In this document: positions 35,958 through 54,893 of the stretch, piece after piece
How positions within the stretch are numbered: the first letter of the stretch is position 1
How the letters are laid out: each line of letters starts with the position of its first letter
NCBI GenBank assembly: GCA_963716725.1
Contig: CAVQUB010000011.1
Span: forward strand, 384,001-448,000
Direction: 5' to 3'
Length of the DNA stretch: 64,000 bases
Source of the DNA: an uncultured delta proteobacterium
GTDB taxonomy: Bacteria > Myxococcota_A > Polyangia > Polyangiales > Polyangiaceae
Position numbers and translations under genes: made by a program
The notes under the pieces: model-generated
What the model was told of the DNA's origin: nothing
Database searches by the model: none
Seen by the model: only the letters and a program-made list of their open reading frames with translations

Positions 35958-37855
35958 GGAAGTCACCGTTTACCGGTGGTGGGCGGGACACGCCCCGAGC
36001 ATGTTTCAGCTTTTGCTATCACCGGTCTCCACTCCGCCGTTTGCATACGATCGGGGTGGCATCATCGCCTCAATGGGGGCTCCGCAAGACTCAGGCCCGT
36101 CGATTTCGCGGTCGCTTGGCCTGGTGCGGTGACAGGGTTGTTAGCCGCTGTCAGCTTCGGCGAAGAGTATTGTCGGCGCATCGCTCAGTCGGCCGGCTTT
36201 CGCCCACCGGAGCCTCGACGTGAACCGCGTTGTCGCGGTCACGGATGCTGACCCCCCGCGTCTCATCAACTGGAGGAGCCTTCACCAACGCATACCCTGC
36301 CTCTGATGTTCTCTGTCACCGCATGGGCACGGTCAGCAAGACCTCAGGCTCTCACTACCCGCTGGCTCGACCCGGCCGCCACTCGCTCGCGCGAGTACTC
36401 TTCCGAACCTGCATTGACCCTCACGGTCAGAACCGCGCTCGCGCCGAACGGTTTAAGAACAGCGCTGCACACGATCCAGAACACCTATCGTCGTATCTGC
36501 GACGCACGAGGTTTTACCCTCATGCTCAAAACCACCCGCTCAGTTGTTCACTTGAGCTGGTGACTCCGCGTACCCGTTCGCCCATCCGCTTTTCCGCGAC
36601 GCTCCGTCAAGAGCACCTCGGTTCCGGTCGAGCTATGCCGATTGTGACTCGTGCCTTTCGGCAGCCGAGTCCATCAGGCCAGAGATACGTCCGATCGACG
36701 ACTGCAATCCCACATTTCAAAAACGAGCACTCGTTGCTTCGCGTGGTTACCGAGTCGCTTTCCAGGGTTGCCCCTGGTGCGCTGCGATGAGTGAGGCGGT
36801 TCACGCCGCGTTCACTCGCTTCGGGCGGCGCTACCACCAGCGCAGCGAGTATTCTCCCCTCGCCGCTCCGTTGGAGCTCCGACTCCTCTGACGCTCCCGT
36901 CACCACCCAGACGTCACCGGCTCATTAGGCCAGCTTCACCCAGGCGACCGAGATCACTTCCACTGCCGCGATGCGTGAATTGCGACAGCTTTCGTGACCC
37001 GGAGCACCTTCCTCTGGCTAGGAGCCCTTCTCGGGCTCTTTGTTGGTCCCCGCGCTCGGCAGTGCCGAACGTCGACTCCAACTCACACCGTCCCTTCGCC
37101 CGCGGTGGAGATCATCCACCCTGAGCTAGGCCCCGTCCGCTCACCTCAGCCACAACCGAGGCTCGCCTCTCGAGCCAGACGCCGCTCACCAGATTCTGCA
37201 ACATTTCAACGCGAAACCCGAGCACACCAACGAACGACGTTTCCTCACCCGACGAGCCGCTTTCGCACCCTTCGTTGCCCGACACCGACCGAAGTCGACC
37301 CGAGCTGTGAGCAGCGCAGCACCGGAGAGCCTTTCTCTCGAACGACCCTCTGGCTGGCACCCCGAAGGCGCCTGCCGCACCGGCCGAGACACGGGGAGTT
37401 GGCTATGCGTGCTGCGACGCAGAGGCCCACTCAGCCACGTCTCGAACACCCCGCTGTCGTTGACTCACCGCTGGTCGAGCCTGAAGAGGACTGGAGCAGT
37501 CAGCTGGCCAACCGAGGCCTCCAATCTCACCGCCCGCGCGAACGGGTGGGGTGGTCCTGAAAGCCGGGGTGCCTTCGAATCTCGAGAAAGCCAAGACAGA
37601 GGCGCTACTCCGTCTGGCCGGGATGCCCCAATTTCCGAAGAATAGCTGGCCACGCGAGGTGGGCAGCTTGGGGTCACCCTCACGCCTTTTTCACCAGTCG
37701 TCTCGGTAGGCCTTTGACGGGTCCACTCGAGGCGACGGGCGGCGGCGTCCATCCACAGGCAGGCTTGCGACCCGCACGGCAGACAGTGCGCCACGGCGCT
37801 TCTGAAATTCTCTACGAACCGGTCGTTCGCCGGCAGATGTGCCGCGAACTTCCAA
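35917..37855 (-). ncRNA. Candidate large (about 1.9 kb) structured non-coding RNA, unassigned class; 5' end approximate
   Basis: No ORF with host codon bias; many hairpins with GNRA or C(UUCG)G loops on the minus strand; long-range complementary segments; ends at an oriented terminator. Confidence 0.7.
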
Positions 37856-37918
37856 GGACCATTAATGCTTCAGGTCGACTCTCTAAGCAACAAGAAAATC
37901 AGCGGAGATGCGATTTTA

Positions 37919-37950
37919 TTATCCACACAGTCAGTCACAGGTAATCCACA
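37919..37950 (+). promoter_or_regulatory. DnaA-box-like sites in an AT-rich intergenic segment
   Basis: TTATCCACA 37919-37927 (perfect), TCAGTCACA 37931-37939 (weak), TAATCCACA 37942-37950 (8/9). Confidence 0.5.
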
Positions 37951-38294
37951 GGCCCCCTTGCGGGGCCGAGCAGCATCTGATCGACGGCAGCTAACCGTTC
38001 GTATTCACGAAGTTATCCGGAGAGCAACGAGCTGGAAGCCCGCCCGGCGCGCACAAGAACATGCGTTGACTACTTCATTTGAATACCGATGCTATTCTCG
38101 TTTGAAATCCCGGGTCTCTTCTTCGACTGAAAGAGGGGGTAGGTGAATCCACTACCCAAGCGCCGCCCTCGGCCCGACGCCCCTTCGCGGGGCGCGGTCG
38201 CTCAGTCCGAGATCCCGGCGCACCCCAACCCACTTTGGTGACCGAGAGGCCGCGATTCGGTGGTACACCGCTGTTTCCGCGAGGAGGCTCCCTG

Positions 38295-38516
38295 GTGCCG
38301 CTGAACGTCGACACGCTGAAATCCGAGCGCGATAAGCTCAAAGAAGGTCTCCGCGAAATCGAAGCCGATCAGCGCAAGCTCGAGGCGGAGATCAAGGCGC
38401 TGCGCCAGCGCGAGCTCCAAGCCAAACGTGAGATCGAGGCGCTCAACGTGCTGCTCGAAATCCACGACGCCCGCGAGCCGAGCAAGAAGGCCCCGCCCAA
38501 GAAGCCGGAGGAGTGA
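38295..38516 (+). CDS. Small coiled-coil protein (73 aa)
   Basis: GAGGAGG at 38281-38287, GTG at 38295; heptad pattern LKSERDKLKEGLREIEADQRKLEAEIKALRQRE. Confidence 0.8.
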   Translation: MPLNVDTLKSERDKLKEGLREIEADQRKLEAEIKALRQRELQAKREIEALNVLLEIHDAREPSKKAPPKKPEE

Positions 38517-40200
38517 CGCCCGAGCTCACTCGGGCGCTGGCAGCGCGCGGCAAGTGGCCCTCGGTGATCCGAATCGAACCGAGGCGCGAGGCGGAACCGC
38601 CGGGAGCGAAGCTGTCGACGAGCGGAGCGAGCCCTTCGACGCCCAGCGCAGCCGGCGGCTGGAGCGCCGTCCCCGCCGCCGCCAGCGACTCGACGTGGAG
38701 CGTCTGCGTCGGAAACGCGAAGCGAACCCCGAGGCTCTCGGCCAAGCGCAGGACTTCGAGCAAGATGTCGTGTCGGGTGACCAGCTCGTCGGACCATTCC
38801 GCAGCCTCGACGTAGCAGTGAAGTGTGACGTCGAGGGACGAGTTGGCGAGCCGACTCAGGTGCACCTCGAACTTGTCTTTGCGGGTCCGCTCCGACGCCC
38901 AGACGATAGCGCGGATCCCCTCGACAAAGGCCTCGATGCGCTCGACCGGGGTGTCGTAGGTCACGGAAAAAGTCTCCAGTATTCGGCGGTGTCGCCGCGC
39001 GCCCATGTTCTCGATCTTCGCCTCCGCCAGCCGGGCGTTGGGCAAGGTGACCAACGAGTCACCCAGAGTCCGGATGCGCGACGAGCGGAAGCCCACCTCT
39101 TCCACACGCCCCTCGACGTCCTCGACCTTCACGAGGTCGCCAATGCGAAAGGGTCGGTCGATGAAGATCATGACGCTCGCGAAGAAGTTCGCGATGGTGT
39201 CCTTGGCGGCCAACGCCATGGCGAGACCACCAATCCCAAGCCCCGCCAACAGCGAGCCAACGTCCACGTTCAGGTTCTGGAGCAGGACCAGCACCCCGAC
39301 GATAACCAAGACGATCTTCATTGAAGTGCGCACCAGCGGCACCATCTGGTCGTCGAGCCCCGATCCGGTCTGCTCGGCGCGCGTCGCCAGGTGTGCAGCC
39401 AACACGTCCACGAGTCGGTAGAGCGCGAGCACCAAGGCGACGATCACGCTGGCACGCAGCGCCGTCGAGAGCCCGAGTGCCACACCGAGCGGCAGCCCGA
39501 GCTGGGGATACGCGAGCCGCAACGTCAGCACTGCGAAGAGCATCGCACCGGGAGTCGCGAAAACCTTCACCAACTCTGCCGTCAGCCGCGCCCCTCGCCG
39601 CTCGGCGAAACCCGCCAGCCGGTGCTTCAGCACGAAGCGAATCAGCTGCCTGAGCACCAGCGCGACCAGCACGATCAGGGCCAAAGCCAGCCCCTGCCAG
39701 AGCTCCATGCCGAGCATTCGACCCCGGAGCCAGGGCGGCAAACGGCTCACGATGCCGTGCTTGCCCATCAGCAGTGAGTCTTCGTAGATCTCGTCTATGG
39801 CATCGAGGCTTGCCCGCGACCACCGCCACATGCCGTCGGCTTGCCTTTCAACCAAGATGTTGGGGAACGCCCCATGGGGCGCGATGGACGCTCGCCGCGT
39901 GTCGGGGTTCACCCAGCCCGGCTCGTCGCTAAAACGCGCGGTGTCGATCTTCAACGCGCGCGCTGCGTAGACGGTCTTGACGCGCTGCGCGCTCTCGCGG
40001 AGCTCGCTGGTCGAGCGTCCGGCGCGATCGAGACAGCGTGTGGCCTTGGCGGGGTTGTGGTGTTCCTCCGACAGCCAGCCGAACAACGAATCCACCGCGT
40101 CACGCGGAGACTTGCAGCTGGCTGGGGGCTCGGCAGACACGCTGAGCGGCGCAAGGACGGCTAGCAAAAACAGGACGAGACAATGGTGGATATGACGCAC
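38443..40200 (-). CDS. MscS family mechanosensitive ion channel
   Basis: LLAGLGIGGLAMALAAKDTIANFF, DRPFRIGD, GRVEEVGFRSSRIRT, FAFPTQTL. Confidence 0.93.
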   Translation of the reverse strand: MRHIHHCLVLFLLAVLAPLSVSAEPPASCKSPRDAVDSLFGWLSEEHHNPAKATRCLDRAGRSTSELRESAQRVKTVYAARALKIDTARFSDEPGWVNPDTRRASIAPHGAFPNILVERQADGMWRWSRASLDAIDEIYEDSLLMGKHGIVSRLPPWLRGRMLGMELWQGLALALIVLVALVLRQLIRFVLKHRLAGFAERRGARLTAELVKVFATPGAMLFAVLTLRLAYPQLGLPLGVALGLSTALRASVIVALVLALYRLVDVLAAHLATRAEQTGSGLDDQMVPLVRTSMKIVLVIVGVLVLLQNLNVDVGSLLAGLGIGGLAMALAAKDTIANFFASVMIFIDRPFRIGDLVKVEDVEGRVEEVGFRSSRIRTLGDSLVTLPNARLAEAKIENMGARRHRRILETFSVTYDTPVERIEAFVEGIRAIVWASERTRKDKFEVHLSRLANSSLDVTLHCYVEAAEWSDELVTRHDILLEVLRLAESLGVRFAFPTQTLHVESLAAAGTALQPPAALGVEGLAPLVDSFAPGGSASRLGSIRITEGHLPRAASARVSSGVTPPASWAGPSCSARGRRGFRAAR

Positions 40201-40254: not shown

Positions 40255-40662
40255 TCAGAGCTTGGTCTTGCCCAGGGCCAGAATGGCGGCAAGCTCAGGG
40301 TCCGAGACGGGCACGACCGAGAGCCGCCCGCGGCGAACCAGGCCGAATTCGGCGAAGCGCGCGTCGGCCTTGATGGCAGCGAGGGTCACCGGCTCGACGA
40401 TGGGCCCGAGCGGGGCCAGGTCGATGGCAACCCAGGTGGTATCCCCCGGATCCGGGTACGCGGCCCGCGTGACCTTTGCCAACCCCACGACGCGACGCTC
40501 GTCGCCCGTATGGTAGACGAGGACGAGATCGCCTTTCTGGGTCGAACGCAGGTGGTTCTTCGCCGCGTGATTGCGGATGCCGTCCCAGACGGTCTTCTTG
40601 TCGCGCAGGAGATCGGCGAAGCAATATGTGCCCGGCTCGGTCTTGAGCAGCCAGGTTGCCAT
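40255..40662 (-). CDS. EVE domain-containing protein
   Basis: WLLKTEP...WDGIRNHAAKNHL...GDLVLVYH...RLSVVPV. Confidence 0.92.
   Translation of the reverse strand: MATWLLKTEPGTYCFADLLRDKKTVWDGIRNHAAKNHLRSTQKGDLVLVYHTGDERRVVGLAKVTRAAYPDPGDTTWVAIDLAPLGPIVEPVTLAAIKADARFAEFGLVRRGRLSVVPVSDPELAAILALGKTKL

Positions 40663-54817: not shown

Positions 54818-54893
<76 letters not shown>

Follow-up and report, generated by a model that had tools for sequence, protein, structure and literature searches.

A structured noncoding RNA of three related modules, about 1.9 kb long and conserved in Polyangiales

The interval 36084..36403 of the window, which here means the whole 64,000-nucleotide stretch of DNA that was analyzed, is the 3' part of a 1.9-kb minus-strand gene that does not code for protein and occurs across the order Polyangiales. 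Its product is almost certainly a conserved structured noncoding RNA, and a strong candidate for a new class of giant 'ornate' RNA. Directly observed for this RNA were its conservation, the lack of a coding signal, the homology of its three modules, helices that covary, and RNA-seq assemblies that contain this span. The original prediction had assigned the interval to the 3' domain of a candidate RNA, and the domain does belong to a real, large, structured RNA. The particular helices and the direct repeat proposed within it are present in the DNA, not conserved, and outside the supported structure.

The gene, its ends and its transcript

The interval is located in a gap of 2.3 kb between the end of a FadL-type porin gene (35795) and a gene for a 93-aa coiled-coil protein (38235); an MscS channel is the other neighbor in the window. 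The RNA gene is single-copy in the genome. RNA positions p used below equal 37856 minus the window position. The features of the gene are as follows.

37919..37950, minus strand: candidate DnaA boxes upstream of the promoter, a perfect box at 37919-37927 and a near box at 37942-37950
37860..37910, minus strand: predicted sigma-70-type promoter with an A/T tract, a -35 element TTGCTT at 37890-37885 and a -10 element at about 37867-37860; position and motif kept in homologues
35958..37853, minus strand: body of the noncoding RNA of about 1.9 kb, ends approximate, collinear in homologues
37847..37853, minus strand: 5' strand of the terminal helix; the near-invariant leader GCGGCACATCTG comes directly after it
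35971..36056, minus strand: small 3' hairpin domain ahead of the terminal helix, with window pairs centered at 1804/1820, 1832/1880 and 1860/1872
35958..35964, minus strand: 3' strand of the terminal helix
35916..35957, minus strand: intrinsic terminator, a covarying 14-bp hairpin followed by a U tract

Several observations speak against a protein product. Among homologues, only 4 of 122 indels have a length divisible by 3, and a shared ORF end was found in at most 12 of 63 homologues in the sense direction or 20 of 63 in the antisense direction. A codon-bias filter retained one ORF of at least 70 aa within the RNA among 51 loci. The conserved reading frame expected of a protein-coding or small-ORF mRNA was thus not found. 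The strand was assigned from GNRA-capped hairpins, which number 13.1 in the sense and 2.4 in the antisense direction and favor the minus strand in 63 of 63 homologues; the minus strand is therefore the probable sense strand. Together with covariation that tolerates G-U pairs across 1.9 kb, this bias implies selection on the RNA.

The upstream sites, taken as DnaA boxes from their match to the consensus, raise another reading, in which the region acts as DNA, as an origin or a DnaA-titration site, and its transcription is incidental. The perfect box is one of only 7 in the 7.9-Mb genome and has a second, near box beside it. However, both boxes fall outside the conserved body, and neither the strand bias in 63 of 63 homologues nor the G-U-tolerant covariation over 1.9 kb would be expected of such an element, which makes this reading hardly credible. 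DnaA-type boxes also occur upstream in homologues. The other six perfect boxes of the genome lie on contigs C5, C7, C9, C21 and C22; those on C21 and C22 are in AT-richer sequence and possibly reflect contamination of the bin. Boxes like those at 37919-37950 also precede a tRNA pair (L444), and similar ones precede genes that we presume to be related to lexA and dnaN (L433, L430).

A consensus promoter scanner found no promoter at the RNA gene, so the promoter predicted here is deduced from conservation. Upstream of full-length homologues lie DnaA-type boxes, the A/T tract and a TTG(C/A) -35 element; a covarying terminator lies 1.7-2.3 kb downstream. The 5' and 3' ends pair as a terminal helix in most homologues (z 2.0). 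Divergent from the promoter is the coiled-coil gene (38235-38516, plus strand), which is common to 8 loci of the lineage and not family-wide. Ordinary genes nearby include those for an EVE-domain protein (40255-40662, minus strand), the MscS channel (38443-40200, minus strand) and tRNA-Arg(CCT) (54818-54893, plus strand).

Part of the gene was detected in 20 RNA-seq runs from 9 studies, and half of its words or more in 5 runs. Taken together, the RNA-seq contigs, which carry neither strand nor level and of which one run may be the source of the genome itself, cover 35958-37843. Single contigs free of joints reach 1885 nt (X1, 35958-37842), 1877 nt (X2, 35962-37838) and 1812 nt (X5, 35994-37805). 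RNA contigs of three studies end at 35958-35963, the base of the terminator, and 16 of 51 metagenome contigs start no more than 11 nt from the 5' motif; shared contig ends are a weak hint of RNA ends. Flanking genes have almost no RNA-contig cover across 6 and 20 kb, a kind of cover that says nothing on relative expression. The contigs agree with an RNA of about 1.9 kb that is not spliced, has its 5' end paired to its 3' end and has presumably lost its terminator by trimming. Loose contig ends at 35962 and 37843 are presumably sequencing adapter, which they resemble. At the end of one contig (L096), close to the 3' end of the RNA, 15 nt are duplicated, through an assembly artefact or an end joining.

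Module architecture and long-range pairs

Judged from comparison of its parts, the RNA is an internal triplication of a module of 500-650 nt. The modules and the core helix of module 3 are located as follows.

37230..37830, minus strand: module 1, RNA 26-626, homologous to module 2, with covarying stems 26-32/620-626, 47-49/276-278 and 283-289/405-411
36727..37225, minus strand: module 2, RNA 631-1129, the best conserved, with stems 663-671/835-843, 848-855/959-966 and 1046-1050/1057-1061
36071..36716, minus strand: module 3, RNA 1140-1785, which holds 36084..36403, with five stems, 1142-1150/1775-1782, 1157-1160/1363-1366, 1371-1378/1544-1551, 1577-1583/1599-1605 and 1703-1707/1722-1726
36305..36485, minus strand: core helix of module 3, 36485-36478 with 36312-36305

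Module relationships were examined in 63 sequences, the set of 72 with 9 near-duplicates and fragments below 1450 nt left out. The profile of module 1 matches module 2 in 24 of 63 sequences and that of module 2 matches module 1 in 41; between modules 2 and 3 the corresponding numbers are 12 (2 to 3) and 30 (3 to 2), and reversed-profile controls gave 0 of 63. Modules 1 and 3 scarcely find each other by profile (0 and 3 of 63). A covariance model built from the core of module 2 alone picked out modules 1 and 3 as its best matches after module 2 itself in the 64-kb window (E 2e-4 and 4e-3).

All three modules share one predicted fold that radiates from a central junction. In this model, each module begins with an entry stem and a GCAGAAG linker, continues with a helix around a variable subdomain, GGAA and a core helix with a three-way junction, and ends with AGAG, one more helix, GAAG and terminal hairpins. 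Double changes occur at 17 of 18 RNAalifold pairs of the module 2 core. The core helix of module 3 closes a span that holds the 5' arms of the three helices discussed below; it is 97% paired with double changes at 6 of 8 pairs, and its pair 1376-1546 exceeds all null maxima. Single-pair covariation against a tree-based null gave a weak signal at both sample sizes: at 29 sequences 1 pair lay beyond the null, and at 63 sequences 8 pairs reached E<=3, of which 6 are base pairs. Few nucleotides are invariant apart from the 5' leader. A CUAG motif is kept at equivalent sites of modules 2 and 3 (37124-37131 and 36632-36637, minus strand) and is possibly a protein site or a palindromic dimer contact. 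Pairing of the two CUAG loops with each other was tried and rejected (z -0.6).

In addition to the local helices, the following loop-loop pairs, of which PK-a is a candidate only, are predicted to connect distant parts of the RNA.

36342..36347, minus strand: module 3 arm of PK-c, loop CUGAGG, inside the second copy of the direct repeat; partner CUUCAG
37481..37486, minus strand: module 1 arm of PK-c, loop CUUCAG
36105..36110, minus strand: module 3 arm of PK-b, loop CGCGAA, inside the flagged interval; complement UUCGCG
37537..37542, minus strand: module 1 arm of PK-b, loop UUCGCG
36800..36979, minus strand: PK-d, a kissing pair in module 2, UUCACG at 36979-36974 with CGUGAA at 36805-36800
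36604..36610, minus strand: PK-a, module 3 loop UUGACGG, with candidate partner CCGUCAA at 37721-37715

The cognate-pairing tests used 27-40 sequences under 80% identity, and control helices scored z 6-12. PK-c covaries in the targeted test (z 6.7) and keeps at least 5 of 6 pairs in 57 of 61 sequences when each arm is free to shift by 2 nt. PK-d covaries as well (z 6.6); all 63 of 63 sequences retain 5 or 6 of its 6 pairs, with variants such as UUGACG/CGUCAA, UUGGUG/CACCAA and, in the two-module family described below, UUCACC/GGUGA. Both had been selected after the alignment was viewed, and a blind grid scan gave them Z 3.5 (PK-c) and Z 3.9 (PK-d), under the 99.9% quantile of 4.4. PK-b is exact in 55 of 61 sequences and keeps at least 5 of 6 pairs in 58 of 61; it does not covary (z -0.5) because it is nearly invariant. 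PK-a, a possible pair between modules 3 and 1 suggested by loop complementarity, keeps at least 4 of 5 pairs in 55 of 63, a trend short of significance (z 1.6, p 0.06). In ROOL RNA, covarying kissing loops that were first taken as tertiary contacts join the subunits of a cage, according to PMC12286853. Covariation would thus appear alike for loop pairs within one molecule and between molecules.

The interval 36084..36403 (no strand assigned) had been singled out for three perfect complements, at 36125-36135/36313-36323 (H1, 11 bp), 36162-36169/36396-36403 (H2) and 36246-36253/36331-36338 (H3), and for a direct repeat at 36084-36096 and 36336-36349. All are present in the DNA, and H1 is interleaved with both H2 and H3. 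They had been interpreted as a multi-pseudoknot core or as mutually exclusive conformers. Long-range pairs of the pseudoknot type do occur in this domain, but H1-H3 are not among them, as within-species pairing of their arms was no better than cross-species pairing (z 0.7, -0.3 and -0.4). Nothing in the analysis supported alternative conformers or splicing.

The observation of H1-H3 and the repeat is modestly above chance only. In 2000 dinucleotide shuffles of the 320-nt stretch, which had been chosen by eye, at least three stems of at least 8 bp occurred with P 0.057, an 11-bp stem with P 0.016 and both with P 0.003. Among 398 tiles of the window, 72 hold at least three such long-range stems, and 6 of these also hold one of at least 11 bp; the homologous tile has three such stems in 1 of 58 sequences.

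On the minus strand, 1 of 29 homologues keeps all but one pair of H1, 3 of 29 do so for H2 and 7 of 29 for H3, with weighted pairing of 0.53, 0.30 and 0.55; on the plus strand the numbers are 5, 4 and 6 of 29. Double-change pairs are not in excess (148 of 500 shuffles). Only 3 of 58 homologues retain the direct repeat, and the best local similarity between the two halves of the 320-nt stretch gave P = 0.12. With such low retention and no cognate pairing, H1-H3 and the repeat were rejected as conserved features. In an alignment of 30 sequences, 51% of H1-H3 cells are paired, compared with 49% when shuffled (reached by 5 of 500 shuffles) and 35-42% in slid registers; this excess is expected because the helices were read off one row of the alignment. 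A nested alternative on the same alignment is 74.6% paired and has 178 double changes against 60 in shuffles (0 of 500). Its weak spots are three off-register pairs, which are 0% paired, and the 1734-1763 helices, which are only 27-57% paired.

When the whole RNA is folded as a nested thermodynamic ensemble, a model that cannot form pseudoknots, pair probabilities of H1-H3 are 0.0. Their strands sit mostly in other helices (1371-1378/1544-1551, 1429-1431/1536-1538, 1434-1439/1528-1533, 1577-1583/1599-1605 and 1703-1707/1722-1726), and the 5' arm of H2 falls in a segment absent from many homologues. Perfect complementarity in the source genome, the joint shuffle value and the persistence of H3 and part of H1 in the closest relatives could favor H1-H3 as a pseudoknotted core or as alternative conformers. 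Against this stands the use of most of their strands by covarying local helices, and the chance that H1-H3 form such a core or such conformers is very slight.

Distribution and variant forms

Homologues of the RNA range from about 1.1 to 2.9 kb. Within the genus, 72-88% identity was found in 6 of 6 other genomes, and in other genera the RNA is collinear at about 58-60% identity. The near-invariant 5' motif has 65 matches in GTDB, of which 26 fit the profile; these are labelled Polyangiaceae (mostly), Polyangiales, Myxococcales or (delta) proteobacterium. The remaining 39 were set aside, many of them reading as probable aspartokinase starts and others as chance matches. In metagenomes, 49 of 65 loci scored above 60 bits.

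With only 20 candidates scored per genome, the model matched 51 of 150 genomes of the family, leaving 99 with no match, and 54 of 150 genomes of the order, in families f1, f5, f9, f10, f11, f13, f22 and f24; family f17 gave one weak match besides these eight. Outside the order the 5' motif is at background level. Model R1 gave 0 matches in the phylum sample beyond the order and, in the class, 2 weak matches that lacked profile support; model R2 gave 9 weak matches in the class (E 1e-4 to 9e-3), and the 2 examined had no support. A promoter-pattern search led to 18 loci, none homologous on inspection. Because few candidates were scored per genome, these results outside the order mean 'not found' and not 'absent'.

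Variant forms differ in the number and state of modules. In family f9, 42 of 73 genomes match a two-module form of 1.09 kb, which has modules 2 and 3 and lacks module 1. The UUCGCG motif is found there in 1 of 15 sequences, the PK-a motif in 0 of 15 and CGCGAA in 4 of 15, compared with 60, 44 and 57 of 61 in the three-module set. A loose PK-c motif is present in 11 of 15, and PK-d is retained through compensatory change. Loss of the PK-a and PK-b motifs alongside module 1, in sequences that all come from one genus, may hint at independent support for the long-range pairs. Copies of this form at L204:2735-3825 (G178) and in L205 (G044) lie downstream of a shared large gene, and the 5' leader of the form repeats the TCTTTGAA motif, present also at the start of module 3.

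In two complete genomes of 12-14 Mb from genus g266, shortened copies were found (L193:2340-3845 and L194:2460-3610), in which module 2 is intact and modules 1 and 3 are eroded; the L194 copy looks truncated. Longer forms of about 2.4-2.9 kb also exist (L423, L422, L414), with promoter and 5' start unchanged. The RNA is probably dispensable, because 99 of 150 family genomes gave no match and the copies in two complete genomes are eroded.

Patchy detection, eroded copies in some lineages and flanks that differ among lineages could also suggest a mobile RNA element, selfish or in decay, that persists at one locus and serves no host function. However, the RNA is single-copy, its flanking genes are alike within lineages and differ only across them, and its structure is maintained at about 45-60% identity. 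On viral contigs, at least 121 loci retrieved with two patterns did not fit the profiles, and neither INPHARED phages nor PLSDB plasmids gave a match. A mobile element of this kind is thus very unlikely.

Relation to known RNAs and proposed role

Searches against Rfam gave no match at the gathering threshold, at E<=10 for the window region (cmscan) or at E<=5 for 20 homologous contigs. At these limits the ROOL model (RF03087) was not matched; it also found nothing in the RNA's own genome, a weak result by itself, as the 14 controls gave nothing either. The GOLLD model (RF02032) was not matched either. The RNA does not occupy a phage or prophage site near tRNA islands of the ROOL kind, the nearest tRNA being at 54818 and viral or phage matches being absent. 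An OLE RNA would be expected to match its model and to lie beside a conserved partner gene; here there was no Rfam match, and the flanks vary. In the literature no description of the RNA was found, in a search that would miss a motif given only in a supplementary table or subscription paper.

By size, complex covarying structure and a transcript of its own, known from contigs alone, the RNA belongs to the descriptive class of large ornate bacterial noncoding RNAs. In PMC12265935 and PMC12990946, the ornate RNAs OLE, ROOL and GOLLD measure 577-833 nt, and the present RNA exceeds them in length by a factor of two to three. Like ROOL, the RNA is large, has several pseudoknots and looks independent of protein, and one of its modules is about the size of ROOL (550-659 nt); unlike the phage-borne ROOL near tRNA islands, it has three homologous modules per chain and is chromosomal and lineage-wide. 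It shares with GOLLD the character of a giant ornate RNA, GOLLD having kissing loops and A-minor contacts and forming cages in those texts, but the GOLLD structures listed are 700-833 nt, whereas the present family covers about 1.1-2.9 kb and no phage copies were found. OLE is likewise chromosomal, lineage-restricted and ornate with unknown biochemistry, and has kissing-loop dimer contacts. In contrast, OLE is about 600 nt, about 25% of it is highly conserved and it acts with Oap proteins, whereas the RNA reported here is internally triplicated and lacks a conserved neighbor gene.

Other large or stable RNAs were compared as well. RNase P RNA, 6S RNA, tmRNA and SRP RNA have a stable-RNA layout, and the RNA resembles them in its paired 5' and 3' ends and its probably trimmed terminator. 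It differs from them in matching none of their models, and canonical copies of all four exist elsewhere in the genome, so the RNA is not an expanded housekeeping RNA that replaces a missing copy. Group I and group II introns are of comparable size and have a multi-domain fold radiating from a central junction, but they have a host exon, an internal ORF or a spliced form, none of which was found here, and the RNA has its own promoter and terminator. Neither the domain V model nor an RT ORF of group II introns was found, and contigs are unspliced; for group I introns, no match to the catalytic-core model was obtained, and the gene is intergenic with its own terminator, not inserted in another gene.

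These comparisons bear on the idea that the RNA is a large ribozyme with an active site in at least one module, whether of a new kind or descended from a group I/II intron or an RNase P-like core. Large ribozymes typically have such a size, conserved purine-rich junction nucleotides and more than one pseudoknot, and PMC12265935 puts forward the same argument for OLE. The Rfam results given above, the stand-alone gene outside any exon, with no internal ORF or conserved neighbor, the unspliced single contigs, the normal RNase P RNA elsewhere in the genome and the scarcity of invariant nucleotides beyond the 5' leader stand against it. We regard a ribozyme as improbable.

Repetition of modules may also be a sign of a regulatory sponge, whose three modules would be repeated sites titrating RNA polymerase, a ribosomal protein or a regulator, with synthesis coupled to replication via the DnaA boxes. 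Module number does vary (two or three), DnaA-type boxes are conserved at the promoter and the RNA gene has no fixed neighbor. However, known sponge RNAs such as 6S, CsrB and Ms1 are small and repeat short motifs, and the genome has its own 6S; conservation in the present RNA is concentrated in tertiary-type junctions and cross-module loop pairs, and like boxes stand at a tRNA promoter. Such a sponge seems unlikely, if less so than a ribozyme.

The reading that we slightly favor is a structural one, in which loop-loop pairs hold the three similarly folded modules together in a compact scaffold particle, either a ring made of one chain or an oligomer. A strong promoter of the stable-RNA type with DnaA boxes would drive transcription, termination would occur at 35957-35916, and trimming would leave a mature RNA whose ends, at about 37853 and 35958, pair with each other. 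In each module, the purine-rich linkers GCAGAAG, GGAA, AGAG and GAAG would connect four helices, and about 13 GNRA hairpins may provide tertiary contacts. PK-d would close module 2, whereas PK-b, PK-c and perhaps PK-a would bind module 3 back to module 1, either within one chain, giving a ring of three, or between chains, giving an oligomer. By analogy with the ornate RNAs that form cages or scaffolds, and outside those families, the RNA may serve as an abundant structural RNA or as the core of an RNA-protein particle.

A more tentative suggestion, which we think possible but doubtful, concerns the origin of this structure. The RNA may have grown beyond the size of 16S rRNA through tandem triplication of an ancestral, self-assembling module, which fused the subunits of an oligomer into one chain. 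Loop pairs formerly made between subunits would now run from module 3 to module 1, closing a pseudo-threefold ring or linking chains into a cage, and the result would be an RNA-built particle in predatory myxobacteria, with two-module and eroded forms recording the gain and loss of subunits.

The family is about 1.1-2.9 kb long, has no Rfam match and owes its build to a folded module repeated within one RNA, for which no bacterial precedent is known to us. It may explain part of the unannotated RNA in sludge metatranscriptomes. Its two-module, three-module and eroded forms provide a natural series on the growth of large RNA machines by duplication, and this series would be the RNA counterpart of fused protein oligomers.
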